Below are positions 3 to 20,000 of a stretch of 20,000 bases of DNA, piece by piece. The notes beneath the pieces are model-generated. The model worked only from the letters and a program-made list of their open reading frames with translations, was not told the origin of the DNA and ran no database searches. Position numbers and translations under genes: made by a program. Source of the DNA: an uncultured virus (IMG/VR IMGVR_UViG_3300008113_000139) (lineage: Duplodnaviria; Heunggongvirae; Uroviricota; Caudoviricetes); the IMG/VR virus record IMGVR_UViG_3300008113_000139, one strand, 5' to 3'. Every line of letters starts with the position of its first letter. Position 1 is the stretch's first letter.

Positions 3-1142
3 GATGCTTACAAGACTATGGAAGATTACCGTATCAACCGCTGCGAGTATCAACTCGATGGTTTCGTAGTCAAAGCTCCTAACGATCTTCGCCCGGGACT
101 TGGCGAAAACTCACACGATCCTAACTGGGCAGTTGCTATCAAGTTTCCTCCTAAGGAAGCAATCACCAAGATCGTATCGATATCTTGGCAGTTCGGGAAA
201 ACCGGAGAGGTTACTCCAGTCGCAGTTATGGAACCTATCGATCTTGACGGTTCTACGGTTTCACGAGCTGCTTTGTTCAATTACGGTTATCTAAAAACCA
301 AAGGCGCTTTTCCTGGCGCCACTGTCGCAATCGCAAAATCAGGTGATATCATACCGCAGATTACTCGAGTGGTAGTCGAAGGTTCGGAATCAAATCTGGA
401 AGTTCCTACCCACTGCAAATGTGGTTCGGAATTGCATTTGCGCGGAATCCACCTGATGTGCGAGAATCCTACCTGCGAAAACATTGCATTCAATATGTTT
501 GCCCAAGGAGTTGCTCAGCTCGACCTCGACGGCGTAGGTGGCTCAATGATACACCAACTCTGGAAAGCAGGCTACCGCTCTGCTGTGGAAATCTTAAACC
601 CTACCAAGTTTACTCGGGAACGTCTGTTCGCAAACAGCGAACTCAAACCCGGTAAGATGGTAGAAAATATGTTCAAAGAGATCGAAAAGATCAAAGAACT
701 CAAACCCGCTGAAGTTATTCTTATGCTGGGATTCCCAGGTATGGGCGGTTCTTCTGCCAAACAGGTAGGTAACATGCTGTCTGGTGTCAAGTACAACTTC
801 TCAGGATTGGAAAAGGCGGTCATCGCAGGATTCGGTGCTGGTGAAAAGAAACGCGAGATTTATGAATCTGCAATCGCTGAATTAGGACAGTTCATCGAGA
901 TCACTATGCCGGAGAAAATTGCTGAAGACGCAATACCTTTCGAGATGACAGGCTCACCAAAATCATTTGGGTTTAAGACCAAGGATGAATTCGTTGCTGC
1001 TGCCAAGGCCAAAGGATTCTATCACACGGGTCTCAAAGAAGCAAAGGTGCTTTTCGTCGACGATCTCAACACCATGAGCAACAAGATGAAAACTGCGCAA
1101 TCCAAAGGCGTAAAAATCATGCTCTATTCAGAGATCCTCTAA
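3..1142 (+). CDS. ligA: NAD-dependent DNA ligase, C-terminal part (gene starts upstream of the window)
   Basis: Frame open from window start. Motifs DGFVVK (IV), PNWAVAIKF (V), OB-fold QFGKTGEVTPVA and KSGDIIPQI, Cys4 Zn finger (CKC...C...C), HhH-like LDGVG and FPGMG, C-terminal BRCT-like MTGS...KGV. Confidence 0.93.
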   Translation, partial: DAYKTMEDYRINRCEYQLDGFVVKAPNDLRPGLGENSHDPNWAVAIKFPPKEAITKIVSISWQFGKTGEVTPVAVMEPIDLDGSTVSRAALFNYGYLKTKGAFPGATVAIAKSGDIIPQITRVVVEGSESNLEVPTHCKCGSELHLRGIHLMCENPTCENIAFNMFAQGVAQLDLDGVGGSMIHQLWKAGYRSAVEILNPTKFTRERLFANSELKPGKMVENMFKEIEKIKELKPAEVILMLGFPGMGGSSAKQVGNMLSGVKYNFSGLEKAVIAGFGAGEKKREIYESAIAELGQFIEITMPEKIAEDAIPFEMTGSPKSFGFKTKDEFVAAAKAKGFYHTGLKEAKVLFVDDLNTMSNKMKTAQSKGVKIMLYSEIL

Positions 1143-1150
1143 GATATATA
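1143..1150 (+). promoter_or_regulatory. Putative late promoter (GATATATA) heading leader-protein cassette 1
   Basis: AAGATATATACCTTAGAAAAAAAATACA is nearly identical to the sequence at 5263-5288. The same core precedes the gp15-like gene. Analogous to the T4 late TATAAATA element. Confidence 0.6.
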
Positions 1151-1173
1151 CCTTAGAAAAAAAATACATAGGA

Positions 1174-1653
1174 ATGAAACACATACAGCCTTTTGATCTA
1201 TTCATCAACGAAAAGAAAGACGAAAAGTACACCGCAAGAATCGAAGATTCAAGAAAGCCTGGCGGATCTGACAAAGACATCAAAAAAGATTATGGTCTTG
1301 ACGTTGAAAATCGTGACAGAGACGGATTTGATATAGTCGGAAAAAAAGAAGATATCGAGGCATTCATCGAAGACTATGGAATGGGATCTGAAGTAGAGAT
1401 AGAAGTTTACGAAAGTGCGGAAGCAACCAACGAAGGCAAGACTATCGGAACTCTTTCTGATGAAGATGACGATCTTTACTTAGAAGCAAAAGAACTTCTT
1501 GCTAAAGAATACGAGAAATTCCTTAAGACCGTTGAGCCAAAGTTGATGAAGATCATCAGTAAAGCAAGCAAGGATAACGTTCTTAAGACCAACCTACAGT
1601 CTAAAGCAGCGAATGACTTGGTTGATGTCTACAAAATTGGATTCCTAAAATAA
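1174..1653 (+). CDS. Hypothetical protein with MKHIQPFDLFINE leader (putative virion internal protein)
   Basis: 159-aa ORF, A-rich upstream region, shares the N-terminal leader with neighbours. Confidence 0.8.
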   Translation: MKHIQPFDLFINEKKDEKYTARIEDSRKPGGSDKDIKKDYGLDVENRDRDGFDIVGKKEDIEAFIEDYGMGSEVEIEVYESAEATNEGKTIGTLSDEDDDLYLEAKELLAKEYEKFLKTVEPKLMKIISKASKDNVLKTNLQSKAANDLVDVYKIGFLK

Positions 1654-1661
1654 GAATTGCA

Positions 1662-2486
1662 ATGAAACACATACACACATTTGAGAGCTTCTTAAATGAA
1701 GCAGAATCAGGAGGTCCTTACTTCCTCCAAATTAACCTAAGACAGAGCATGCTCGGCGGTCACTCTATAGACGCTGAAGTTGCTTCTTCAGGTACACAAG
1801 ATTTTGCCGACATTCGTGACAAAAGCGGTTTCTTAAAAACTCCTGCGTTGGACAAAGCGATGGCCGAACTGACTCTTTGGAAAAATAGAGATAAAAGCGG
1901 AAAGGTAGATGCTTCGTTCATCAAAGAATTTGAAAAGGCAATGGAAGGTATTGGGTTCAAACTTGCTAAGTTTAGATACTCAGCACCGCTTGTGAAACAG
2001 GTGGCTGATGAATCAGATGCGATCGCAGCGATCAAAGATACCGTCAAACTTTTAGACAAACTTTACGATTCTTACACACCTGAGTCGATTCCTGTTCAAC
2101 CGGGACCCGCTGCTTCTGCTAGAGGTCTGGCGGACAACTTAGTGAATAAATACGTAAGTGGAAGAGGAGACGTTGTGATGGAACTTGCCGAATTCATTTC
2201 AGCAGTCGCAGGACCTAAAGTCAACAAGTACATTAAGTACAGCGACCCAGTATACGACGGACCTATCATTGACAGAATCAAAGCACAGTACGACAAAGAG
2301 AGACCAGCCAAAGAACAGACTTGGGGTGTACTGAAGGCATCTGCTTACAAAGACGGGGTGGTCATCGTAAGAGTTGAGGATCCAAAGAAAACTTCTACAC
2401 CAGAATACACAACAGAGTACTCGGCTGGAAATCTTAAGAACAACGGAGTAAAACCCGGAGACATACTTCTTGCGGTCAAAAAGTAA
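1662..2486 (+). CDS. Hypothetical protein with MKHIHTFESFLNEA leader (putative virion internal protein)
   Basis: 274-aa ORF; leader identical to those at 2495 and 6054. Confidence 0.85.
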   Translation: MKHIHTFESFLNEAESGGPYFLQINLRQSMLGGHSIDAEVASSGTQDFADIRDKSGFLKTPALDKAMAELTLWKNRDKSGKVDASFIKEFEKAMEGIGFKLAKFRYSAPLVKQVADESDAIAAIKDTVKLLDKLYDSYTPESIPVQPGPAASARGLADNLVNKYVSGRGDVVMELAEFISAVAGPKVNKYIKYSDPVYDGPIIDRIKAQYDKERPAKEQTWGVLKASAYKDGVVIVRVEDPKKTSTPEYTTEYSAGNLKNNGVKPGDILLAVKK

Positions 2487-2494
2487 TCATAAGA

Positions 2495-2944
2495 ATGAAA
2501 CACATACATACATTCGAGAGCTTCTTGAATGAAGCGGCTAAAATAAGAATCGCATATACTCAGATCGATAAGAAAGCGTATGCTACACAAAAGCAAGGCG
2601 TCAAGTTTTCTGTGAAAATCAACAATCAAACAGCGACTGGAATCTGGGTCCCTAAGTTTGGCGATATGGCAAGCGGTGTTGACGTAAATGAATTGGAAGG
2701 ATCTGGCAGAAAAAGATTCTACATATTTTCTTCTGGCGGAACTTCTAAATCTTTTCCTATTAGTGCTCAACTTGAGGAATTAGACAGACAACCTAAAGAT
2801 TTACGTTTCACCGGTCCGTACCTTGACGTTAGCAAATTAAAAGATGTGTTCATTGACAAGATAACACAAGCTATAGAAAAACCTTCAAAAGATGAAGAAC
2901 TTTCGCCAGAGTTTTTGGAATACTTTGAGATAAGTCAAGTTTAA
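2495..2944 (+). CDS. Hypothetical protein with MKHIHTFESFLNEA leader (putative virion internal protein)
   Basis: 149-aa ORF, 8 nt after the previous stop; conserved leader. Confidence 0.85.
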   Translation: MKHIHTFESFLNEAAKIRIAYTQIDKKAYATQKQGVKFSVKINNQTATGIWVPKFGDMASGVDVNELEGSGRKRFYIFSSGGTSKSFPISAQLEELDRQPKDLRFTGPYLDVSKLKDVFIDKITQAIEKPSKDEELSPEFLEYFEISQV

Positions 2945-2964
2945 GAATAAAAAAATACATAAAG

Positions 2965-3333
2965 ATGAAACACATCAACACATTTGAGAACTTTGTAAAC
3001 GAGGCAGCAGTCTATGCAGACTTTACGTCTCAAGAAAAATCTGCGTGGAGACACTCTTCAAATCCTTACGGCGATTCCTACTTCATGCCTAAGACTGAAG
3101 AAGAATACACTAAGATGATGAAGTTCTTGGCAAGCAAAGGCTGGTCATTCTGGAATGTGAACAGATTCGGAGGACAGGAGCCAGTGAACGCAGACAAACT
3201 TCCAAAGTGGAAAAAAGACCTCGCATTCAAACTGAATCTGGGTGGCAAGACAGTGATGCCTACTATCGTAGGACCCACTACACAAGGCGCTCCGTTTGAT
3301 CACGAAAAGTTTTTCAAGATGACGGGCATGTAA
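2965..3333 (+). CDS. Hypothetical protein with MKHINTFENFVNEA leader (putative virion internal protein)
   Basis: 122-aa ORF; leader variant; upstream AAAAAATACATA also precedes ORF 1174. Confidence 0.85.
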   Translation: MKHINTFENFVNEAAVYADFTSQEKSAWRHSSNPYGDSYFMPKTEEEYTKMMKFLASKGWSFWNVNRFGGQEPVNADKLPKWKKDLAFKLNLGGKTVMPTIVGPTTQGAPFDHEKFFKMTGM

Positions 3334-3355
3334 AATCAAGATTGTTAAATACTAT

Positions 3356-3393
3356 AAGTTCTGTGGATGACCTCCACAGAACTTTTTTCTTTT
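3356..3393 (+). terminator. Rho-independent terminator closing cassette 1
   Basis: Perfect 12-bp stem AAGTTCTGTGGA / TCCACAGAACTT, 5-nt loop, followed by TTTTCTTTT. Confidence 0.88.
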
Positions 3394-3405
3394 AGTTAAT
3401 ATAAT
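3378..3405 (+). promoter_or_regulatory. Putative early/middle promoter AGAACT-N14-AATATAAT upstream of topoisomerase large subunit
   Basis: Same bipartite motif at 8275-8303 and 10332-10360; here it overlaps the terminator. Confidence 0.4.
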
Positions 3406-3441
3406 TACTGTAAGTTATTCACAAGTTCATACAAAGACATA

Positions 3442-5259
3442 ATGGCCAAGCAAAACAAACAAACTGCATCAAACAAAGAAATCGTAGCGCTCAGCGACTT
3501 TGAGCACGTACTTCACAGACCAACAATGTACATTGGTTCGGTCGAGAAATCTGAAGAAAAAGTACAGATCGTAGAGCCAGGAAAACTCGTCGAGAAGAAC
3601 AAGATCATTTCCGTAGGTTTCTACAAGATGCTCAATGAAATTGTCGACAACGCATTTGACGAAGCCAAGCGAATGAAAGGCCAGATGCCTAAGATCCGTG
3701 TCGAGATCGACTCTAAGACCAACCGAGTCAAAGTTACCGACACCGGAGGAGGATTTATCAATGCTGAGAAACCCAATCCTAAGACAGGACAGTCGAACGT
3801 AGAGACAGCGATGTCGATGCTTCGAGCCGGTTCTAACTTCTATAATGAAGATTCGACCGACAGCCTCATCGGAACCAACGGTGTAGGTGCTGCTTTGGTG
3901 AACATGCTGTCAGATGAGTTTTCCATCGAGACTGTGAACAACGATATTCACTTCGTCGCTACTTGGAACAAGTTCGTCAAGACCGATGAAACTTGCCGTC
4001 CTAAGAAACGCGGAGAACAGACAGGAACCACGGTTACATACATTCCAAGAAAGGATGTTTTCAAAGACTGTAAGTGGGATAAAGAATACTTGCACACGAT
4101 GTTCATATTCCGTCAGTTCTTGAAGAAAGAAGATCCTGTGATCAGCAACTTGGTAATTGAGTTTGTGTTCGATGGTCAGGTCATGGATCTTGACATCAAC
4201 TTCATTCCTGACGGTGCTCTTGCTTTCAAGAACAAACTAGGCATGTTCTTTGTCTGGGAGAAATACGAAAGCGGGACATCTGCTTCATTCGTCAACGGTG
4301 CTTTGTGTACGGGAATTCACCAGAGGATATTCACTGACTGGGTCAACGAAATCTTCGACTATCAACTTGCCCACCACTTTTACGATACATTCCTGATACT
4401 TAATTTTCCTCCTAAGCTGGTTCGCTTCGCCGACCAAAACAAGACCAAGTACGCGGCAGGACGCTGGGAGATTCAGCCAATGTTGGAAAAAGAATTCCAT
4501 AAGAAGTTGAGACACGCAGTACTTCGCTCAGATTTCTACGAAGCGGTCAAGAAAAAGATCGATGAAAGAAATCTCAAACAAGACCTCAACGCAATCAAGA
4601 ACAAGAAAAGAGCCGCTGCGAAAAAGATCAGCGACAAATACTTCCCACCGTCCGGAAGCAAAGGAACACTCTTCATAGTGGAAGGGAGTTCAGCGATGGG
4701 ATCAATCTTGCAAAAGAGAGATCCACGAGTTGATGCAGTCTATTCATTGAAAGGCAAGATCAAAAACGCAAGGAGTCTTTCTGACCTGAGCACCAACAAT
4801 GAAATCATTGACTTGATGAACATTCTCAATCTCGAGCCACGAGACGGAAGTAAGTGCACTTTCTCAAACATTGCAATCGCTACCGACTGGGACCCAGACG
4901 GAATCGGCCACATTGCATCCCTTGTGATCAACCTATTCTATAAGTGGTTCCCGCAAGTCATTGACCAAGGCAAGCTCAACATTCTTATTACACCTCTTGT
5001 GTCTGCCGAGGTGAACAACAAACGTAAGTACTTTTATTCGCTTCACGAGTGGGGACAGTTTGAGAAAAGCGGAACACCTTACCGCGGAGTTCGTTACCTC
5101 AAAGGTCTGGGTTCATTGAGTGTTGAAGACTGGCAGCTGATCATGGCAGAACGTAAGATGTTTAAAGTTCGTCAAGACCGCTCGGCAGCCAAGTTCATCG
5201 ACATCGCATTTGGCGCCAACAGTGACAAACGCAAGAAATGGCTTGAGGGTAGAATCTAA
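3442..5259 (+). CDS. gp39: Type IIA DNA topoisomerase large (ATPase+TOPRIM) subunit, GyrB/ParE-like, equivalent to T4 gp39+gp60 in one ORF
   Basis: EHVLHRPTMYIGS, GHKL motifs NEIVDNAFDE, DTGGG, GTNGVGAALVN; TOPRIM VEGSSA, LKGKIKN, DWDPDG; YLKGLGS. Confidence 0.95.
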   Translation: MAKQNKQTASNKEIVALSDFEHVLHRPTMYIGSVEKSEEKVQIVEPGKLVEKNKIISVGFYKMLNEIVDNAFDEAKRMKGQMPKIRVEIDSKTNRVKVTDTGGGFINAEKPNPKTGQSNVETAMSMLRAGSNFYNEDSTDSLIGTNGVGAALVNMLSDEFSIETVNNDIHFVATWNKFVKTDETCRPKKRGEQTGTTVTYIPRKDVFKDCKWDKEYLHTMFIFRQFLKKEDPVISNLVIEFVFDGQVMDLDINFIPDGALAFKNKLGMFFVWEKYESGTSASFVNGALCTGIHQRIFTDWVNEIFDYQLAHHFYDTFLILNFPPKLVRFADQNKTKYAAGRWEIQPMLEKEFHKKLRHAVLRSDFYEAVKKKIDERNLKQDLNAIKNKKRAAAKKISDKYFPPSGSKGTLFIVEGSSAMGSILQKRDPRVDAVYSLKGKIKNARSLSDLSTNNEIIDLMNILNLEPRDGSKCTFSNIAIATDWDPDGIGHIASLVINLFYKWFPQVIDQGKLNILITPLVSAEVNNKRKYFYSLHEWGQFEKSGTPYRGVRYLKGLGSLSVEDWQLIMAERKMFKVRQDRSAAKFIDIAFGANSDKRKKWLEGRI

Positions 5260-5264
5260 AAGAA

Positions 5265-5272
5265 GATATATA
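5265..5272 (+). promoter_or_regulatory. Putative late promoter (GATATATA) heading leader-protein cassette 2
   Basis: AAGATATATACTTGGAAAAAAATACA closely matches the element at 1141-1168. Confidence 0.6.
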
Positions 5273-5297
5273 CTTGGAAAAAAATACAAAGTTCTAA

Positions 5298-5699
5298 GTG
5301 ATCAAAAATTTCCACGACTGGCTCAACGAAGAAACCGACTATAAAGTCAAGTCTCCGATAGATGTCGAGATCATAACGGGCAACGTCAGGACCAACTTGG
5401 ATCCACAAGCCGAAGATTGGATGTCAAAGTCAAAAGATCTTGATGACTATAAGGCCATGTTGAAGGACATGCGCAAGGCTATTGGCGAAGACGACAAGCA
5501 AGCGGTCGAAAAGATCATAGGCAAAGCCAAAGAAACTCCTCTATTCGCAAAAGAACCGGGCACTATCTGGAGAAGGAAACAAATCGAGAACATGGAACCC
5601 ATGCGCTCAGATGCAGATTTTAACCGTTGGGTCGCCAGATATATAGTAAACAAACTAGGAGTTTTCATCTCTTGGTCAGAAAACAAGAAAGAATCATAA
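5298..5699 (+). CDS. Hypothetical protein with shortened leader variant (MIKNFHDWLNE)
   Basis: 133-aa ORF, GTG start, FxxWLNE variant of the leader, directly after the promoter motif. Confidence 0.75.
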   Translation: MIKNFHDWLNEETDYKVKSPIDVEIITGNVRTNLDPQAEDWMSKSKDLDDYKAMLKDMRKAIGEDDKQAVEKIIGKAKETPLFAKEPGTIWRRKQIENMEPMRSDADFNRWVARYIVNKLGVFISWSENKKES

Positions 5700-6043
5700 A
5701 TGAAACACATTCAGACATTCGCCCGGACGGCGTCGTAGAAGACGGCGGACCTGTCATAAACGTAGTTACGTACAATGTAATCACTGGAGGAACTTGGACC
5801 GCGGCGCAGTTCTTTAACCAAAAAGACGCACAGGCATGTGCTGATCTACTGAACAAAACCGAAGTAGGGTGCGCAAGCAAAGGCCCGAAATCTAAAGAAT
5901 ACGCAGCAGTTGTCAGAAAGGATACTTTTGGTAAGACCCTGTTCTTTGGTGAATTGGAATCGCTCAACGATACCGCTGGTACCAAGCTTGACATGAAAGA
6001 CATTTACGCAAGAGCCGTACAAGCATACAATTCTCTCAAATAA
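5700..6043 (+). pseudogene. Leader-family gene broken by an apparent deletion/frameshift near 5720
   Basis: ATG at 5700 reads MKHIQTF then ARTAS-stop. The coding-like body (PDGVVEDGGPVINVV...AYNSLK) continues in another frame to 6043. The ExFxNE part of the leader is missing. Confidence 0.65.
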
Positions 6044-6053
6044 AGAAATGACG

Positions 6054-6356
6054 ATGAAACACATACATACATTTGAAAGTTTTCTTAACGAGGCAAAAGA
6101 CATGTCATACTGGAAACAATACGCTAAAGGTCATCATTCGTTACCAAAGTGGTACAACGATGAAGTAAAAAGCGCGTCAGAAATTGCTGAACTCGTTGAC
6201 GAGGTTATTAAGAATGACCAAGCAGAAGCAGATATACCTTTTGACATTGACGAAAAAGATGAAAAGACTCTTGTCAAAATGGCGACCGATTATTTTAAGC
6301 AATTCAAAACTATCAACGGCAACGTCATCAGTGCCATGTTATTCCAAGGAGCATAA
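6054..6356 (+). CDS. Hypothetical protein with MKHIHTFESFLNEA leader
   Basis: 100 aa from ATG 6054 (ORF track starts at 6048); leader identical to 1662 and 2495. Confidence 0.85.
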   Translation: MKHIHTFESFLNEAKDMSYWKQYAKGHHSLPKWYNDEVKSASEIAELVDEVIKNDQAEADIPFDIDEKDEKTLVKMATDYFKQFKTINGNVISAMLFQGA

Positions 6357-6373
6357 AATCAAAACAACTATAA

Positions 6374-6733
6374 ATGGAAAAGGAATTACTTGCTAACGCA
6401 ATACAAATCCAAGGTCAATTAAAGGTCCTTCACTGGCAGACTCTTTCATACGCAGAACACAACGCTTTTGAAATGATCTATGATTCTATCGGAGACAAGC
6501 TCGACCGAATCATCGAGGTCTACAGCGGAAAATACCAAAGACCTAAGTTTGGGGGTGTAAAACAAATCACCTTTGCCGACTACGACAATCTTAAGATCGA
6601 CGCATTCTTGGAAGCATTCGAAGACTTCATGAACAACAGCTTCATGGCTCAGCAAGATGCTGAATTGAACAACATCAAAGATGAGATCGTAGCCGACATC
6701 CAAAAGCTCAAATACTTGCTTACATTAAAATAA
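6374..6733 (+). CDS. Small Dps/ferritin-like four-helix protein (DUF5856-like)
   Basis: LHWQTLSYAEHNAFEMIYDSIGDKLDRIIE matches the Dps-type HW...H......Y....D...E pattern; C-terminal ELNNIKDEI...KLKYLLTL. No leader. Confidence 0.7.
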   Translation: MEKELLANAIQIQGQLKVLHWQTLSYAEHNAFEMIYDSIGDKLDRIIEVYSGKYQRPKFGGVKQITFADYDNLKIDAFLEAFEDFMNNSFMAQQDAELNNIKDEIVADIQKLKYLLTLK

Positions 6734-6742
6734 ACAACCGCA

Positions 6743-7771
6743 ATGGGAGAATTTGTAAAACTTTTCGAAGAATTCGTCAACGAATCGCTGTTTCCAGATA
6801 GAGCATGGCACATCAAGTTTGGCAAAGCCAACGACAAAGACGCCATCAAAATGTTGAAAGACTTCTACGGGGACGAGATCATGGGTGAAGACTTCTATCC
6901 AGGTCCTGGCACCGATAAGACAATGGAATTGTCGAATGACAAATTGGTAAGTCTTTTCGACAAAGGATTGATCGTTGCCGTTGATCCAGATGACTTTGTT
7001 TACAAAGTTGCTGAATCAGAAGAACATATTGATGAAGCTTCTTTCGCCGGCCGTGCTTGGTCTGGCAAGATCGCAAACCTCGACAATCTATTTTCTTGGT
7101 TCTACGACAAAGGAATCCTAAACAAAGGAGAACAAGCTAAGAAAGACAGCCTGTTCCGTCAGTACTATCGTTACTACAACGACGGTGACTTTCCAAAAGG
7201 TCTTTCATCAAAAGGAATCAGCAAATATCACGGAGAAGAAAAGATCGAGAGAGCCCTTGAAGACGAGATCGAAAACTTCATGAAGCAGATCCTCAACAAG
7301 TACACCGGTAAGTACGACCGCAAAGAGTTCCACTTGGACACTCTTCTTAGCGACCTTTACACACTTCGTAGTGTCGTAGCAGGTCGCGATCTTGAAGGTG
7401 GTGTTAAAGGCGAGCCTGATCCATACGGACGCTTGAATTACTGGGGTAAGAAAGTAAATGTTAAAGATTCAGAGTTCGAGAAAATGCTTGGTGAGCTTCG
7501 TCCTCTTTACGATGATGCAAGAAAAGCAGTTGATGCAGCAGTCGACAAGGAAGTCAAAGGCGGAATCTACAAGGACAAGAAATCTTACGAGATACCTGGT
7601 CCTAACAACGGCATATCTTGGGTAAGACAGAGAATGGAAGGCGACGGAATCTGGACGCCTGATCTTGAGAAGAAATACCAAAAGATGAAGACACACATGC
7701 TTAAGATGGGCGACATCCTGAACACAGTCATAGAAGGCGCAGAAAAAGCCAAGGCCGAACTTGGATCATAA
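6743..7771 (+). CDS. Hypothetical protein with leader variant MGEFVKLFEEFVNES
   Basis: 342-aa ORF; FEEFVNE matches the leader consensus; acidic linker AESEEHIDEA around aa 90-99. Confidence 0.8.
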   Translation: MGEFVKLFEEFVNESLFPDRAWHIKFGKANDKDAIKMLKDFYGDEIMGEDFYPGPGTDKTMELSNDKLVSLFDKGLIVAVDPDDFVYKVAESEEHIDEASFAGRAWSGKIANLDNLFSWFYDKGILNKGEQAKKDSLFRQYYRYYNDGDFPKGLSSKGISKYHGEEKIERALEDEIENFMKQILNKYTGKYDRKEFHLDTLLSDLYTLRSVVAGRDLEGGVKGEPDPYGRLNYWGKKVNVKDSEFEKMLGELRPLYDDARKAVDAAVDKEVKGGIYKDKKSYEIPGPNNGISWVRQRMEGDGIWTPDLEKKYQKMKTHMLKMGDILNTVIEGAEKAKAELGS

Positions 7772-7801
7772 AGAATAACAACATCAAAAAACAAATACGA
7801 A

Positions 7802-8218
7802 ATGAAACATCTAAAAAACTTTGGAGACTTCATAACAGAACTCAAGAAATCGCAAGTTTCTGAGGAAGATGAGGATCTCGTAAAAAAGAACACTGAAGAA
7901 TCGTCAGACGATTCTGAAGAAAAGAAAGACGAAGCTCCTGAAGGCGGAGAAGAAAAGAAGGACGACAAAGAAATCGACCTTGATCTTGACGTAGCAGGCG
8001 ATGACGAAAAGAAGGAAGAAGCTCCTGAAGGCGGTGAAGAGAAGAAAGACGACGAAGAAAAAGTAGAACTCGACCTTGACCTTGATACCGACAAGAAAGA
8101 CGACGATTCTTCCGACGATGACGACAAGAAAGACGACGACGATTCTTCCGACGACGACAAGAAAGACGACGATGACGACGATGACGACAAAGCTCCGTCT
8201 GAAGACAGCGGTAAGTAA
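7802..8218 (+). CDS. Highly acidic low-complexity protein with leader MKHLKNFGDFITE (possible prohead core/scaffold-type protein)
   Basis: 138 aa dominated by D/E/K; internal repeats EAPEGGEEKKDD, DLDLD, DKKDDD. Confidence 0.75.
   Translation: MKHLKNFGDFITELKKSQVSEEDEDLVKKNTEESSDDSEEKKDEAPEGGEEKKDDKEIDLDLDVAGDDEKKEEAPEGGEEKKDDEEKVELDLDLDTDKKDDDSSDDDDKKDDDDSSDDDKKDDDDDDDDKAPSEDSGK
7919..8190 (+). repeat. Intragenic direct/tandem repeats of the acidic protein
   Basis: GAAGCTCCTGAAGGCGG at 7931 and 8018; GACAAGAAAGACGAC units three times from about 8090. Confidence 0.8.
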
Positions 8219-8237
8219 TCACTAATAAGTTATTGAC

Positions 8238-8269
8238 AAAACAGGGGCGCTAAGCGCCCCTGTTTTTTT
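8238..8269 (+). terminator. Rho-independent terminator closing cassette 2 (possibly bidirectional)
   Basis: AAAACAGGGGCGC-TAA-GCGCCCCTGTTTT then further Ts; GC-rich stem with A and T tracts on either side. Confidence 0.92.
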
Positions 8270-8274
8270 ATGTA

Positions 8275-8303
8275 AGAACTCTGGCACCTACTGAGAATAT
8301 AAA
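8275..8303 (+). promoter_or_regulatory. Putative early/middle promoter AGAACT-N15-AATATAAA upstream of topoisomerase medium subunit
   Basis: Lies between the terminator and the gene start, where a new promoter is needed; motif repeated at 3378 and 10332. Confidence 0.45.
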
Positions 8304-8323
8304 CATTACAATAACTTTTAGTT

Positions 8324-9718
8324 TTGAAGACCAAATCATATCCACTAAACATCTCAAAGCAAATCGATGTAAATTTCAGGAACTATGCTCTCTACGTTCT
8401 AGAGAATCGCGGAATTCCATCTTTCTATGATGCTTTGACGAATGTACAGCGTTTTATAGTTCTAAACGCTCCTCACAACTATAACAAGACAATATCACTA
8501 GTAGGTTCTTGCATTTCTGATGGATATCACCACGGAGACAAGTCGCTGACCGGCGCGATCAATAAACTGGCTCGTCCATTTGGAAATAGCGAGCAGCTTC
8601 TGCAAGGTGATGGGTTCTTTGGCACTCCTATCAATCACGAAGCATCTGCGGCTCGTTATACATCGGTCAAGATCAATCCTAAGATTGCCGATATGATTCG
8701 TAAGAGTGACTTCCTCAATGAAAAGAACGAAGAAGGATCTTGGAATCCTCTTTGGCTCGACTTACCCATCGGCATTACGAATATGATCATAGGCATCGCG
8801 GTAGGTTACAAAACAACCGTTCTTCCTCGAGATCTTGAAGACATCCAGAAATACTTGGATGGATCAATCAAAGAAGTGGTACCTAAGTTTAAGAATTTCA
8901 AGGGAAAGGTTAAAAGGTTCAAAGGCTTGAACAAGACCTGGCTGATCGAAGGAGTTATGCAGGTCAATGAATCAGCAAAGACGATCCGTGTAACTGAATT
9001 ACCGCCGCTCATGAAGTATGGCAGTTTCTTGAAAAAGTTAGAGACTATACTTGAGAACCACACTGTAAAAATGACGAACAACTCGTCAACGAATATCGAC
9101 ATAATCTTGCAGTTCGCTGGTAAGAAAGACGAATGGCAAGTGTTCTTAGACGCAGTCGAGAAAAGTATCAAGATGCTCATAACCGAAACGCCGGTCTTTG
9201 TAAAAGACGGACTTGTTCTGGAATACGAAAGAATCGAAGACTACATCAATGACTACCGTTATCGATTAGCTGATCTAAGAGTTCGCAGGATTCAGCACTT
9301 TAAGAAATTGAACGATGATGAACTGTTATTCTTAATCTATAAAGAAAAGTACTTGATGTTCATGCTTGCTGGAAAAGGTAAGATGAGAACCGACTCTGAA
9401 GTCGACTCTTTCTTGACAGAACTAACATCCGAACATCCACACATTCGTAGACGTTTGGAATCAATCTTATTAAAGTCCTTGACAGAACAAGAACTTGAAA
9501 GAACCCGTGAAAGGATTAAGTTCTTAAAAGAAGAAATCAAACGTCAAGAAAAAGAACTTGCACAAGCAGTCAAAGATTTCCAAAAGATGGAAGACACGGC
9601 TCTAAAAAGAGCAACCACAAACCGTTCAGCATCATCGGTGGATCTCTTTGCCGATGAAGAAGAAATCGATGGAATAGAAGTATATCAAAATGCAATACAA
9701 GATGAAGAAGAAATTTAA
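8324..9718 (+). CDS. gp52: Type IIA DNA topoisomerase medium (breakage-reunion) subunit, GyrA/ParC-like, T4 gp52 equivalent
   Basis: RGIPSFYDALTNVQR, YHHGDKS, GDGFFG, catalytic AARYT, GIAVGY, ELPP; TTG start; acidic C-terminus. Confidence 0.93.
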   Translation: MKTKSYPLNISKQIDVNFRNYALYVLENRGIPSFYDALTNVQRFIVLNAPHNYNKTISLVGSCISDGYHHGDKSLTGAINKLARPFGNSEQLLQGDGFFGTPINHEASAARYTSVKINPKIADMIRKSDFLNEKNEEGSWNPLWLDLPIGITNMIIGIAVGYKTTVLPRDLEDIQKYLDGSIKEVVPKFKNFKGKVKRFKGLNKTWLIEGVMQVNESAKTIRVTELPPLMKYGSFLKKLETILENHTVKMTNNSSTNIDIILQFAGKKDEWQVFLDAVEKSIKMLITETPVFVKDGLVLEYERIEDYINDYRYRLADLRVRRIQHFKKLNDDELLFLIYKEKYLMFMLAGKGKMRTDSEVDSFLTELTSEHPHIRRRLESILLKSLTEQELERTRERIKFLKEEIKRQEKELAQAVKDFQKMEDTALKRATTNRSASSVDLFADEEEIDGIEVYQNAIQDEEEI

Positions 9719-10331
9719 TACCGCACCGCTTCTGCATGCGCGCCCACAATCACACGACGAAGATGAACAAACAAACATGCATCCAGGAATCTCAGTTCTA
9801 GGCGATCACATCTGGTTCTACGGCCCTATAGATGAAAGATCAGCTCTTGCTCTGAACCGCTCTTTACATGAGTTATCAATGAAACTAGCTCCCACGGCGT
9901 TTTCTTCGATGCAAGAAGTTGGATCTCCTTCACCAATCTGGCTTCACATAAATTCAACAGGCGGAGAGATATTCTCATCTTTTGCTATCGCTGATACCGT
10001 TGAAAGGATATCCTCGTTGACCCCGGTCATAACAGTCATTGAAGGATGTGCTGCATCAGGAGCTACATTCGTATCAACCGCAGGAACAAAAAGGCTCATG
10101 CGAAAAAATGCCTACATGCTCGTTCATGAGTTAAGCAGTGCATCTTGGGGCAAGTACACAGAACTCAAAGACGACATGGTCAGCAACGACTCTATCATGA
10201 AGACTGTTAAAGATTGGTACACATCTAAGACAAAGCTACCTGCCAAAGAACTCGATAAAATACTATCACACGATATCTGGTGGAATGCCAAGCAATGTCT
10301 CAAGTACGGCCTCATTGATCAAATCATCTAA
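9702..10331 (+). CDS. clpP: ClpP-family serine protease
   Basis: IWFYGPID, INSTGGE, catalytic triad context CAASGA (Ser), MLVHE (His), HDIWW (Asp), C-terminal YGLIDQII. Start may be 9690 or 9702. Confidence 0.9.
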   Translation: MKKKFNTAPLLHARPQSHDEDEQTNMHPGISVLGDHIWFYGPIDERSALALNRSLHELSMKLAPTAFSSMQEVGSPSPIWLHINSTGGEIFSSFAIADTVERISSLTPVITVIEGCAASGATFVSTAGTKRLMRKNAYMLVHELSSASWGKYTELKDDMVSNDSIMKTVKDWYTSKTKLPAKELDKILSHDIWWNAKQCLKYGLIDQII

Positions 10332-16604: not shown

Positions 16605-18261
16605 GTGGAAGAATTTTGGCAGTTATGGAAATAACGTCCAACGAATATCTTTCGACGAAAATCAAGGTAACTTCTATCTTGTCCTTGGAGGTAACGGAGC
16701 TGGAAAGTCAACGATGTCCGACGTTATCAAGTTTGGACTTTATGGAAAAGTAGACAATAAGAAACTTAGAGATCTTCCTAATCGTTTCAATAATTCACTG
16801 TCCGTTAAGATTGAAGTTGAAAAGAATCCTGGCACTGTCGCCGTCATAGAAAGAGGAATCGCGCCAAACTTCTTTCGTCTTTACATCAACGGAGCAGAAT
16901 ACGACCAAGCAGGCAAAAAGAACATGCAAGAATTTCTTGAAGAAGAAATCTTAGGAGTTCCCTACTATGTTTTCAACAACATGGTATCTTTGTCCATCAA
17001 TGACTTTAAGAGCTTCATAAACATGGGAGTTCACGACAAGAGAATGATCATCGATAGACTGTTTGGACTCGAGGTTCTCGGGGCTATTAAGTGGAAAGTT
17101 CGTTACCAAATCAAAGCCATGAAGGAGCAGATCGATATGATTGATACCGAGATATCCGTGATTGAACGCAATGTTACTTCTTCAACTCAAGAGTTAGAAA
17201 ATCTTAATGAAAAACTTAAGACAGCTGGTGAAGAAAAGAAAAAGGAACTCAATGAACGTATCGAAAAATTGAACGAGTTTATTAAGAGTGCCAACGATAA
17301 GATGAACCAAATTGCTGACAAGAGCAAAGAAGTTGATGACATGATGAAAGAATGGGAATCAGTGATCAGCGGTCATAAGACAGAAATACATGTGTGCACT
17401 GAGAAAATCAACCTTTATGAAAAAGGCAAATGTCCTACATGTGAAGCCGATCTTACAACCGACCACCACAAGTCAATGCTTCAAGATTACATAAACCGTG
17501 ACAAAGAATCGCGCGATGCAATCCAGCAAATTCGTATTAAAGTCGATGAACTTACCGCTCGTAGGCAGAAGATTAAGGAAGCGTACTCTGATCTAAGTAA
17601 TAAGAAAGTATCTGCTTCAACCCAGCTTAGCGCTTTCTCTGGAGAGCTGAATCGTCTCAACGAAAATAACGCAACTGATGAACAGACACAGTCTTTACAA
17701 AACATTATAGACGATAGTCTTGAAAAGAAAACTGAAGCTCTTCACAGAAAAACGTTGGAAGAAAAGAAAGCAAACTTCTACAAAATCATAGAAGACATAT
17801 TCGGCGATAAAGGTGTTAAGATATCTGCCCTAAAGAGAATCTTACCAGTTCTTAACGCAGAAATTCGCAAAGTGTTGGTAGATCTTAACATGGACTATCG
17901 TGTTTCTTTTAATGAAGAGTTTGAAGTGGACATCCAACATTTAGGATTCAAAGTAACTCCGGAACAATTAAGTACAGGAGAACGTAAGAAGGTTGACTTT
18001 GCTGCTCTCATAGCTCTTATCCGCTTAATGAAGACCAAGTTTGCTGGCTTAAACTTAATCTACTTGGATGAAATCTTTTCGTCGATCGATAGTGATGGGA
18101 TCTATCATATCCTCAAAGTATTGCATAAGACTTGCCGTGAACTTAACCTAAACATATTCGTAATCAATCACTCTCAACTTCCTACTGAAATTTTTGACTA
18201 TCGCGCAGAGATCAGCAAGAACAACGGCTTCTCAAACCTTACCATAGAAAAGATCGGGTGA
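16585..18261 (+). CDS. gp46: Rad50/SbcC-like recombination ATPase (T4 gp46-like)
   Basis: WKNFGSYG, Walker A GGNGAGKS, long coiled coil with zinc hook CPTC, signature LSTGE, Walker B LDEIFSSID, H-loop INH. Confidence 0.95.
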   Translation: MKIKTIEWKNFGSYGNNVQRISFDENQGNFYLVLGGNGAGKSTMSDVIKFGLYGKVDNKKLRDLPNRFNNSLSVKIEVEKNPGTVAVIERGIAPNFFRLYINGAEYDQAGKKNMQEFLEEEILGVPYYVFNNMVSLSINDFKSFINMGVHDKRMIIDRLFGLEVLGAIKWKVRYQIKAMKEQIDMIDTEISVIERNVTSSTQELENLNEKLKTAGEEKKKELNERIEKLNEFIKSANDKMNQIADKSKEVDDMMKEWESVISGHKTEIHVCTEKINLYEKGKCPTCEADLTTDHHKSMLQDYINRDKESRDAIQQIRIKVDELTARRQKIKEAYSDLSNKKVSASTQLSAFSGELNRLNENNATDEQTQSLQNIIDDSLEKKTEALHRKTLEEKKANFYKIIEDIFGDKGVKISALKRILPVLNAEIRKVLVDLNMDYRVSFNEEFEVDIQHLGFKVTPEQLSTGERKKVDFAALIALIRLMKTKFAGLNLIYLDEIFSSIDSDGIYHILKVLHKTCRELNLNIFVINHSQLPTEIFDYRAEISKNNGFSNLTIEKIG

Positions 18262-18267
18262 TATATA
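18260..18267 (+). promoter_or_regulatory. Putative late promoter (GATATATA) upstream of the structural gene
   Basis: Same octamer as 1143 and 5265, at the switch from replication to structural genes, 5 nt before the ATG. Confidence 0.55.
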
Positions 18268-18272
18268 GTTAA

Positions 18273-19916
18273 ATGGGACAATTCTTACATAAGTACAATA
18301 CGGACAATGTCCACACTCGAGCGGTGATCGTAGGTTTAATCAACCTGCTTAACTCCCGCATTCAGTACGAAAATGTCCTGTCAGATACTGTCGTAGAAAC
18401 TATAGGTGTTCCTTTCTTACCAAACATGGGCGGTGACGAAAGGTTCTTACAGGATTTCTTCACTCATTGGAATGATTGCAAACACCCAAGAATGGCCGAC
18501 GGCAACTACGATGTAATACCTCGTGGTGTTGTAACGCTGTCAAGTAATACCATCAATACAACTGCAATGACTCATAGGTTCGTCCGCGGATCTTATGTCA
18601 AAGAAGTAAACGGGGAACTGCAAAGATACAATGCTTTCTTGAACTCATTACCTCTTACGATGGACTTTGATATTGAGGTTGAGACAGACACTGTCATTGA
18701 TGCTTTCAAGATTCAGCAAGCAATCTTAGAAACTTTCTATAAAGTTCAGGTCTTTTCCGTGAGCTTCAAAGGATTCCGTGTTCCTTGTCAAGCAGGGTTC
18801 TCTGATGACTTGGGAATAGAAAAGACTTTTGAATTTACATACCAAGATGAGACTGCAGTTAAGTTTAAGTTTTCCATCTCGGTTGAAACATATTACCCGG
18901 TGACTGACCCGACCACCGAAAGACTTGACTCAAACCGTATGACTCGTATTGCAGCTCAGCCTTCAGAGGCTGGCAATGAAAGATCCGGTAGAAGACTGGT
19001 TCTTGACCAGAGATCACTGAACGCAGATTCAGATGGCATAGGTCTACGCATCTATCCAATCAAGGAAAAAAACACACCGCCTTACTACATAGAACTTACT
19101 TCCCCTTCAGCGGAAGACAATTTCTTTTCAACAGGAACAATACCTCTTACTTGGGTAAACACTGGTACCATAACCAATGTAAGCATATACTATCAAATTA
19201 AAGGAACCGAAGAATGGATTCCTATAGTACTTCACCTAAAGAACACGGGATTCTTTGAATGGGTAGTTCCTTTCTTTAACACAAACGGAGACCAGATAGA
19301 ATCTGACGGAATATCATCCAAGGTAATATCACCTTCGGGCATCGATGCAAGAGTTCGTGCTATCATAGACGCGGCAGGCGGAGTAGAAAACGTCGTAGTG
19401 TTTGAATCAGGTGAATCTTACAATAATGATGACAACATAGAAGTCACTGTGATACCACAACCTTTTGCCGAAACACCAACCGTCGTTGCCCCGCTAATTC
19501 AAGCAAGCGTGGACGGTGCTGGGAGTGTCATAGGTGCAAATATCGTTGAGCCAGGAAGCGGGTTCGCTGAATCTGTCACAACCAGCATTCTCATTAAAAT
19601 CGAAGATGATTTCAATACTGCTGTCTATGACGTTCTAACCAAAAATGGTACGTTCACAGGAGACATTGATAACACAACCATCATTGAAGATCAAAGTTAT
19701 ATAACTAATATCAATCCAACCGTTCAAGAGCTGGTTAGCACTGGATATCTAATCTTAGGATTAGGAGTAACAGGATACGGCATACCGAATGATACAACGG
19801 TGATTGACATAGACGAAGCTAACAATACGATTCAATTAAGTAATGTTGTGACGGAAAAAGAAACAAATGCAAAATTCCAACTGTCCCAGGTGGAAGCAAT
19901 CTTAAAGATCAGGTAG
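18273..19916 (+). CDS. gp15: Tail terminator/sheath stabiliser (T4 gp15-like) N-terminal domain fused to beta-rich C-terminal domains
   Basis: N-terminal ~215 aa with GVPF...ERFL, IPRGVVTL and PLTMDFDIEV...DAFKIQQAILETF resembles gp15. The C-terminal ~280 aa are T/V/I/G-rich with Ig-like and GxVxxxxxxxxGxxY/F structural motifs. Confidence 0.65.
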   Translation: MGQFLHKYNTDNVHTRAVIVGLINLLNSRIQYENVLSDTVVETIGVPFLPNMGGDERFLQDFFTHWNDCKHPRMADGNYDVIPRGVVTLSSNTINTTAMTHRFVRGSYVKEVNGELQRYNAFLNSLPLTMDFDIEVETDTVIDAFKIQQAILETFYKVQVFSVSFKGFRVPCQAGFSDDLGIEKTFEFTYQDETAVKFKFSISVETYYPVTDPTTERLDSNRMTRIAAQPSEAGNERSGRRLVLDQRSLNADSDGIGLRIYPIKEKNTPPYYIELTSPSAEDNFFSTGTIPLTWVNTGTITNVSIYYQIKGTEEWIPIVLHLKNTGFFEWVVPFFNTNGDQIESDGISSKVISPSGIDARVRAIIDAAGGVENVVVFESGESYNNDDNIEVTVIPQPFAETPTVVAPLIQASVDGAGSVIGANIVEPGSGFAESVTTSILIKIEDDFNTAVYDVLTKNGTFTGDIDNTTIIEDQSYITNINPTVQELVSTGYLILGLGVTGYGIPNDTTVIDIDEANNTIQLSNVVTEKETNAKFQLSQVEAILKIR

Positions 19917-19947: not shown

Positions 19948-19957
19948 GAATATATAG
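19948..19957 (+). promoter_or_regulatory. Putative late promoter variant (GAATATATAG)
   Basis: ATATATA core followed by an A-rich leader and ATG at 19983. Confidence 0.45.
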
Positions 19958-19982
19958 AATAGAAAAAATAATCTAACATAAA

Positions 19983-20000
19983 ATGTCAAAAAATCTCAAG
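19983..20000 (+). CDS. Start of next gene (MSKNLK...), truncated by window end
   Basis: ATG after an A-rich leader and late-promoter-like motif; only 6 codons visible. Confidence 0.4.

Follow-up and report, generated by a model that had tools for sequence, protein, structure and literature searches.

Why should one short peptide stand at the start of many proteins that otherwise have nothing in common? The question is raised by a 20,000-nucleotide stretch of DNA from an uncultured virus (IMG/VR record IMGVR_UViG_3300008113_000139; Caudoviricetes), referred to here as the window. The DNA belongs to a large T4-like phage, and nine genes in the window open with variants of one N-terminal leader. 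The leader is a real feature: it has a recurring motif, its peptide is under selection, its copies share DNA ancestry, breakpoints fall within it, and related phages encode a matching protease and capsid propeptide. By analogy with T4, it is probably (roughly three chances in four) this clade's version of the T4 capsid targeting sequence (CTS), which would direct proteins into the head and then be cleaved.

Selection on the leader peptide

The 14-residue peptide MKHIHTFESFLNEA is found unchanged in three genes, as an earlier note on this DNA had reported (the arrow, here and below, marks an actual or presumed cleavage point):

1662..1703, + strand: leader copy 1 (MKHIHTFESFLNE↓A)
2495..2536, + strand: leader copy 2; the first 14 bases form the word at the junction of the indel in strain L168
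6054..6095, + strand: leader copy 3, with the most diverged DNA; it begins at the second ATG of an open reading frame (ORF) opening at 6048

The note's counts of 4 codon differences between 1662 and 2495 and 7 between 1662 and 6054 hold, in the same codons and all synonymous; 2495 and 6054 differ in 8 codons, again all synonymous. Differences at saturation are expected at 7.0 +/- 1.7 codons from the codon usage of 19 window genes. The rough neutral chance that all changes are synonymous is 7e-4, 4e-6 and 6e-7, for copies that had been chosen as identical.

Six further leader genes, starting at 1174, 2965, 5298 (GTG start), 5700, 6743 and 7802, join the note's three; the consensus is M-K-H-I-x-T-F-x-x-F-L-N-E. 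ATGAAACACAT occurs six times on the + strand of the window and not at all on the - strand. A loose form of the motif opens 7 of the 23 called window genes and matches 1 of 308 internal windows. In G001, the nearest long relative (238 kb, 84% complete, gyrB 85% identical), the motif opens 23 of 305 genes, with internal matches in 10 of 3775 windows. Tagged genes number roughly 20-28 per record (28 in G001; 23 in the 101 kb of G006). Seven records yielded 84 leaders, 55 of which have E as residue 13. The search pattern itself fixes the columns F, F, L and E of this set; the independent columns are K2, H3, T6 and N12.

Selection on the leader peptide is confirmed by the pairwise proportions of synonymous (pS) and nonsynonymous (pN) differences. 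In the window, six leaders have 13 residues; they give pS 0.86 and pN 0.19, against a pN of 0.69 for the unrelated payloads behind them. The pS/pN values elsewhere are 0.62/0.31 in G001, 0.77/0.18 in G002, 0.50/0.12 in G003 and 0.72/0.32 in G004, with payload pN about 0.7. Since each of the five records has a pN much lower than its pS, the note's proposal of purifying selection on a peptide signal stands.

Descent of the leader DNA

The same note took the synonymous differences to mean that the leader is not a DNA repeat, and here it was mistaken. Scanning with a degenerate pattern gave 98 stretches from metagenome contigs and 4 from viral contigs; with the window's three, the set has 117 copies, 98 of them distinct, and the identical 13-mer precedes 64 payload families (truncated copies inflate the family count slightly). 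Taking one copy per family, the codons are far more alike than codon usage predicts. Among the 64, AAA is used in 61 (usage in payloads 0.72), CAC in 51 (0.43), ATA in 60 (0.32), ACA in 59 (0.38), AGY in 63 (0.32), TTC at position 10 in 57 (0.24), TTR in 61 (0.47) and AAT in 52 (0.54). Leader pairs from different families differ in 3.6 of 12 codons where 6.2 are expected, and nearly all of the variation consists of transitions. The window's copy at 6054 has unusually diverged leader DNA. The leader copies thus go back to a single DNA cassette that was copied, and the identity of the peptide reflects descent plus purifying selection, not convergence. Against this, the leaders of G001 show little codon bias beyond base composition.

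A copied cassette raises the possibility that the leader is nothing else: a start site and recombination word whose constant peptide is a functionless by-product of recent copying. The strong common codon ancestry agrees with this, as do the breakpoints described below and the duplication in G006 of a 5' untranslated region (UTR) together with its leader, at 30900 and 31524. The gap between pN and pS in every record tested argues the other way. The 98 distinct copies carry many changes, all of them silent (the copies were selected by peptide), and three listed changes in the 1662 leader of metagenomic run X14, at 1694, 1697 and 1700, are all synonymous. The motif also persists with different DNA at 5298, 6743 and 7802 and in short distant forms, and the leader ends on the L/I-X-E protease motif. 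A cassette without a working peptide is therefore very unlikely.

Conservation of the DNA as an RNA structure or translation-start element, in a host without Shine-Dalgarno (SD) sites, is hardly credible. In its favour, codons 6-13 allow a weak hairpin, an SD motif stands before 1 of 21 window genes, and gene starts in general prefer A-rich codons, though less than leaders do. The codon preferences go beyond this: ATA (16 of 17) and ACA (20 of 22) in leaders exceed their shares at other N-termini (0.39 and 0.55), and A-richness leaves AGY and the TTC of Phe10 unexplained. Covariation within the leader was looked for and not found: the third bases of codons 6 and 12 are AT in 75 copies, AC in 17, GT in 8 and GC in none, and those of codons 7 and 11 are mismatched CA in 12 and paired CG in 7. 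The folding of leaders is no stronger than that of synonymous controls (mean z +0.21, n=101). RNA structure as the cause of leader conservation is not supported by these results.

Breakpoints at the leader

The note had also remarked that the shared start might act as a recombination handle for swapping payloads, and this is strongly borne out. Among 114 copies compared, 32 pairs are at least 95% identical over at least 100 bases beside the leader; 18 are colinear and 14 are broken, giving 12 distinct breaks after duplicates are merged. Eleven of the 12 breakpoints between these near-identical contigs lie inside leader DNA. Eight are at most 3 bases from the edge of the searched leader, and three lie 185, 231 and 268 bases upstream, which is inside the leader of the preceding gene. 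The remaining break is in an A-rich patch 15 bases 5' of the ATG. If breaks were placed uniformly, such a concentration would have a p of about 7e-11.

The exact junction in strain L168 is the clearest case. Its contig matches window positions 724-1187 at 98.9% and 2478-2983 at 98.2%, and is without the 1,321 bases that carry genes 1174 and 1662; the promoter and UTR of 1174 join the leader and payload of 2495. The leaders of 1174 and 2495 have ATGAAACACATACA, 14 bases, in common at this junction. Assembler word lengths are usually 21 or more. The junction word is shorter than that, and it exceeds the 6-10 bp with which T4 can already form amplifications and deletions (PMC9391042). UTR variants of L168 recur in runs X10 and X14. 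A second contig, L176, joins an upstream region of the L129 type to a payload of the L132 type, with 20 bases in common. In a 2.7-kb contig from X14, 11 of the 14 listed differences (18 in total) cluster at the leaders of 1662 and 2495.

Three runs labelled as aquaculture, freshwater and lake water, with a fourth labelled as a fungus metagenome, covered all 30 bins of positions 1000-8500. Joints between leaders with sides of 24-41 letters (such as 1692>2495, 1163>6054 and 2957>3347) were not counted as crossovers because the repeat itself or other phages could yield them.

Crossovers at the leader are well supported. The points to be set against them are that contigs and not reads were compared, that L168 is known from a single contig, that misassembly is possible where leaders are identical (L175/L193), and that selection may remove junctions elsewhere and so give the same break pattern.

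Comparison with T4 capsid targeting and head proteins

The T4 internal proteins (IPs) IPII and IPIII start with MKTYQEFIAE↓A, which has an aromatic residue at E-6 and E-3 and an aliphatic one at E-2. Residues F7, F10, L11 and E13 of the leader match T4 Y4, F7, I8 and E10 in distance from the final E. In the T4 tag, residues 4 and 7 serve targeting and residues 8 and 10 processing, and gp21 cleavage follows L/I-X-E (PMC9026906). The leader thus resembles the CTS in its aromatic-x-x-aromatic-aliphatic-x-E spacing, in its L/I-X-E end and in being a short N-terminal sequence before otherwise unrelated, variable payloads. Its hydrophobic moment is 0.50, against 0.45 for the T4 tag, and an AlphaFold model of the 6054 protein predicts a helix over leader residues 7-14. 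At the DNA level, T4 ipII and ipIII share 32 identical coding and 14 identical upstream bases, or 46 around the start.

The resemblance extends to the gp21/gp23-type head system, here seen in relatives. The T4 gp23 propeptide has 65 residues (PMC9026906), and the sequence around its end, AQAFGSFLTE↓AEIGG, is close to HTFESFLNE↓AESGG at 1662. In G001 and G004 the capsid proteins carry HYHSLNE at about residue 43. Both records encode, upstream of the capsid gene, a PF03420 protease fused to a scaffold. Among proteins of at least 150 residues, this fused scaffold ranks first in G004 and second in G001 for density of [LIV][NT]E. PF03420 had no match in five partial records. The fusion itself is a separate observation: the equivalents of gp21 and gp22 form one ORF, at 189221-191065 in G001 and 17120-19195 (691 residues) in G004.

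There are also differences. The leader has 13 residues where the T4 tag has 10, and the tagged genes of one record far outnumber the three of T4. Unlike T4 IPs, the payloads reach several hundred residues and some are modular or enzyme-like. Unlike in T4, the host is probably a member of the Bacteroidota and the system is known here from sequence alone.

Virion proteins of other phages

Published virion proteomes of other phages were used as proxies. For Atu_ph07, 140 rows of the virion table were copied from the supplement of PMC6102473, whose text counts 131 above threshold; 137 were mapped by mass and order, 135 of them within 866 called ORFs. A tag pattern of an M[KR] start and [LI]xE by residue 15 is strongly enriched in the virion list: 23 of 32 pattern ORFs are on it, against 112 of 834 others (odds ratio (OR) 16.5). 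With ten paralogues removed the count is 14 of 23 (OR 10.1). Shifted to offset 30, the pattern gives an OR of 1.0, and a looser motif gives 2.6. This enrichment backs the class of tag and not the window phage itself, since the pattern was chosen post hoc and the phage is distant. MA9V-1 was set aside as a further virion test, its published virion work being limited to sodium dodecyl sulphate polyacrylamide gel electrophoresis.

Atu_ph07 has a tag of its own (M[KR]W.QL[TN]E, MRLIDLLE) on many virion proteins without assigned function. The tagged genes are gp53-63 (L047) and scattered others, and the available part of PMC6102473 does not mention the tag.

The leader peptide might instead be selected for a role outside the head, for example in docking to, or degradation by, a protease of the phage or the host, or as a tag for a phage structure in the cytoplasm. 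The window encodes ClpP at 9690-10331, and payloads that are enzyme-like (cytidylyltransferase-like, PAP2, LicD, PGA_cap) or carry DUF285 need not be virion proteins. Such a role is unlikely, as the leader fits both the CTS spacing and the ends of capsid propeptides and an analogous tag is enriched among the virion proteins of Atu_ph07.

Several observations weigh against the capsid-targeting explanation. The head evidence (protease and capsid) is drawn from G001 and G004, and the window contains no head genes of its own phage. In Atu_ph07, the pattern was picked after a partial view of the virion list, the 866 called ORFs overcall the 714 annotated, the virions were purified with polyethylene glycol (PMC6102473), and the window-type form F..F[LIV][NT]E has 0 matches. 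In CBB, three of five ORFs hand-picked from 31 regex matches are in the mass spectrometry table (PMC5259590). The cultured phage MaF61 has a related capsid, and no leader was seen by eye among 37 of its coding sequences, from 41.6 kb. A DnaB helicase is among the regex matches described under Payloads and is taken as a false match. Finally, the candidate promoter motif described below is without specific enrichment at leader genes (4 of 28 in G001, against 18 of 277 other genes).

Proposed mechanism

If the leader is a capsid targeting sequence, tagged proteins would be made late in infection, probably from GATATATA promoters. The amphipathic leader, with F7, F10 and L11 on one face, would bind the prohead core, so that the proteins become enclosed in the head. 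A gp21-type protease would then cut after L-N-E, and at least some payloads would enter the host together with the DNA. Because every cargo gene opens with near-identical 39 bases, short-homology recombination between two leaders could delete, insert or swap whole payloads. A swapped payload would stay in frame, behind a functional start site and address tag. The leader DNA would be kept alike by selection on the peptide and spread by copying. Promoter activity, binding, packaging, cleavage, injection and the functions of payloads are all predictions from sequence comparison.

Known shuffling systems and meaning

In RB49, phi1 and other T4-like phages, PeSLs are intergenic early-promoter/stem-loop cassettes of about 100 bp (PMC2839356, PMC4122927). 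Like the leader, they are short repeats at gene starts that serve as crossover sites when accessory genes are gained, lost or replaced, and no dedicated recombinase is known. In contrast to PeSLs, the repeat here consists of 39 coding bases held constant by peptide selection; it lies in apparently late operons, has no supported hairpin, and the upstream DNA is unrelated between copies. The leader element is not a PeSL, because the repeat is coding and is kept by protein selection. Since words of 6-10 bp serve for microhomology recombination in T4, the 14-20 bases common at the junctions here are enough; the T4 words are scattered by chance, whereas here each cargo gene contains them as part of its sequence, and the products stay in frame. 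Shuffling of IPs was hypothesised in 1994, with the mechanism not detailed (PMC4122927). In contrast to that idea, the crossovers here map to leader DNA, and the exact junctions make shuffling of the IP locus testable. The system would thus work like the CTS/IP loci of T4 and, at the DNA level, like PeSL shuffling, the principle being known from T4. No account of the leader in Bacteroidota jumbo phages, or of crossovers in CTS-coding DNA, was found in the literature searched, which does not prove absence; the available part of PMC7824862 does not mention such leaders.

If capsid targeting is correct, the 13-residue tag predicts virion cargo among uncharacterised genes and explains cargo turnover between strains. 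Members of the T4 IP loci inhibit type IV restriction (PMC12373910, PMC13716836, PMC3012670). Since T4 tagged proteins act in this way (PMC12373910, PMC13716836), the 64 payload families form a candidate list of new delivered effectors.

A bolder and rather doubtful idea is that the leader DNA serves as the universal joint in a library that resembles an integron but needs no recombinase. Effectors delivered by virions, dozens to hundreds of them, would circulate among freshwater Bacteroidota jumbo phages, possibly via excised one-gene circles. Any gene behind the leader would at once be expressed, packaged, matured and injected. If this were true, the tag would allow first-minute anti-defence proteins directed at Bacteroidota immunity to be predicted from sequence alone. 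It would also supply the mechanism left open for T-even IP shuffling.

Organisation of the leader genes

The nine leader genes form two apparent operons flanking gyrB. The first (1174, 1662, 2495 and 2965) lies between ligase and gyrB and the second (5298, 5700, 6054, 6743 and 7802) between gyrB and gyrA. Each opens about 30 bases 3' of GATATATA and closes with a hairpin and T run:

1143..1150, + strand: GATATATA, candidate late promoter of operon 1, from motif density
1174..1653, + strand: leader gene (MKHIQPFDLFINE), 159 residues, payload without assigned function
1662..2486, + strand: leader gene, 274 residues, in no Pfam, PHROG or Atlas family
2495..2944, + strand: leader gene, 149 residues, payload without assigned function
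2965..3333, + strand: leader gene (MKHINTFENFVNE), 122 residues
3356..3388, + strand: hairpin and T run, probable terminator of operon 1, identified by eye
5265..5272, + strand: GATATATA, candidate late promoter of operon 2, from motif density
5298..5699, + strand: leader gene with GTG start (MIKNFHDWLNE), 133 residues
5700..6043, + strand: leader gene whose frameshift is only apparent (133 bases absent from the window at 5712/5713)
6054..6356, + strand: leader gene, 100 residues, helical, no fold match; all 9 homologues keep the leader
6743..7771, + strand: leader gene (MGEFVKLFEEFVNE), 342 residues
7802..8218, + strand: leader gene (MKHLKNFGDFITE), 138 residues, with an acidic tail of low complexity; G001 has an orthologue at this place
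8238..8269, + strand: hairpin and T run, probable terminator of operon 2, identified by eye

In five records, GATATATA has a density of 1.2-2.5/kb within 60 nt upstream of genes, compared with 0-0.05/kb inside genes. It also stands 5' of the gp15-like gene and the head protease gene of G004, among others; its pattern therefore fits a late promoter, and promoter activity is predicted on this basis.

Gene content varies between relatives. The 1174 gene is missing from strain L168 and relative L157, and its G006 orthologue sits behind gyrB. The 1662 gene is also missing from L168; in L157 (79%) it is the first gene, directly behind the promoter. A different payload occupies the 2965 slot in the L136/L137 contig. 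Orthologues of 5298 in G002, G003 and L004 each have their own leader variant. The 5700 gene was considered as a pseudogene and rejected: all four runs have 133 extra letters between 5712 and 5713, and contigs L125 and L126, at 100% identity to 5713-6542, continue the open frame upstream.

Operon 2 also holds a DUF5856/Dps-like protein (PHROG 858; 6374-6733) without a leader, whose gene is kept next to gyrB in G001, G002, G003, G005 and L004. The topoisomerase subunit genes (window 3442-5259 and 8324-9718) have a variable cargo block between them in five relatives and directly adjoin in G004 and L007.

Payloads

Among 88 leader-bearing proteins collected by regex, 72 have no Pfam family, and none matches a tail, baseplate or capsid family. 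The other 16 include DUF285 (5), cytidylyltransferase-like (3), PAP2 (2), DUF5824 (2), LicD, DUF5661, PGA_cap and DnaB. Five consecutive DUF285-repeat proteins, each with a leader, are encoded at 174543-181949 of G001 (L019); these would be odd cargo for the interior of a head.

For eight leader genes of the window, no Pfam or PHROG family was found at E<0.001. The 6054 protein has a sub-threshold PHROG match to an anti-restriction family (E 0.051). Its AlphaFold model (pLDDT 78) has a best PDB Z of 5.2 and no match under E 2 in BFVD. For 1662 and module 2 of 6743, the ESM Atlas had no usable result, and tblastn of that module against cultured phages gave no match. A search for shorter forms of 1662 returned two fragments, too few to judge modularity.

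Payloads are modular, as seen in 6743. This protein consists of the leader, an extra module of about 85 residues, a second protease-like site (..HIDE↓ASF) and module 2. A leader is carried by 77 of 103 homologues, most of which align only from residue 85-93 or so; in most, module 2 directly follows the leader. Four homologues with 76-81% identity have the same unusual MG[EQ]YVKLFEEF leader straight before module 2, and six have other modules in between. In the metagenomic protein L100, the 13-mer leader of 1662, 2495 and 6054 stands on the 6743 module. Distant homologues have shorter, lineage-specific leaders such as MSFKEYLNE and MKIHEILNE. Another leader type, ending in VEA↓VKP, is found on the distant homologues P0089, P0090 and P0102; these leaders are perhaps from a phage with a different protease specificity.

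Phage and host

The window encodes an NAD-dependent ligase, a split type II topoisomerase, ClpP, PolB, RecA, DnaB, and gp46/47-like and gp15-like proteins. Related gyrB genes (57-85% identity) are present in seven viral contigs. No close cultured relative was found, the best gyrB match being 29.6%. The capsid protein of G001 is nearest to that of an uncultured phage, followed by Lak phages, pT24, PAU and PTm1.

Bacteroidota typically lack SD sites. SD-like motifs are as scarce in G001 (7 of 225 genes) as in the window, compared with 94 of 137 in Atu_ph07; because of this scarcity, the host is likely to be a member of the Bacteroidota.

The window is short of sequence relative to its relatives at three sites: 5712/5713 (133 bases), about 13998 and about 16191. 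At the second the DnaB helicase is short by about 13 codons and at the third the gp47-like nuclease by about 39, each with a frame change. The seeming pseudogenes of the window are probably sequence gaps.

Insertions split recA, ribonucleotide reductase and the gp46-like gene of G001 (16840-21816, L001); these introns, inteins or homing nucleases are absent from the window. At its far end (19950-20000), the window has AATATATA followed by a gene start (MSKNLK...) resembling that of G001 28456-30018. The G001 gene encodes 520 residues with no Pfam match, lies near the portal gene, and is a candidate prohead core protein.

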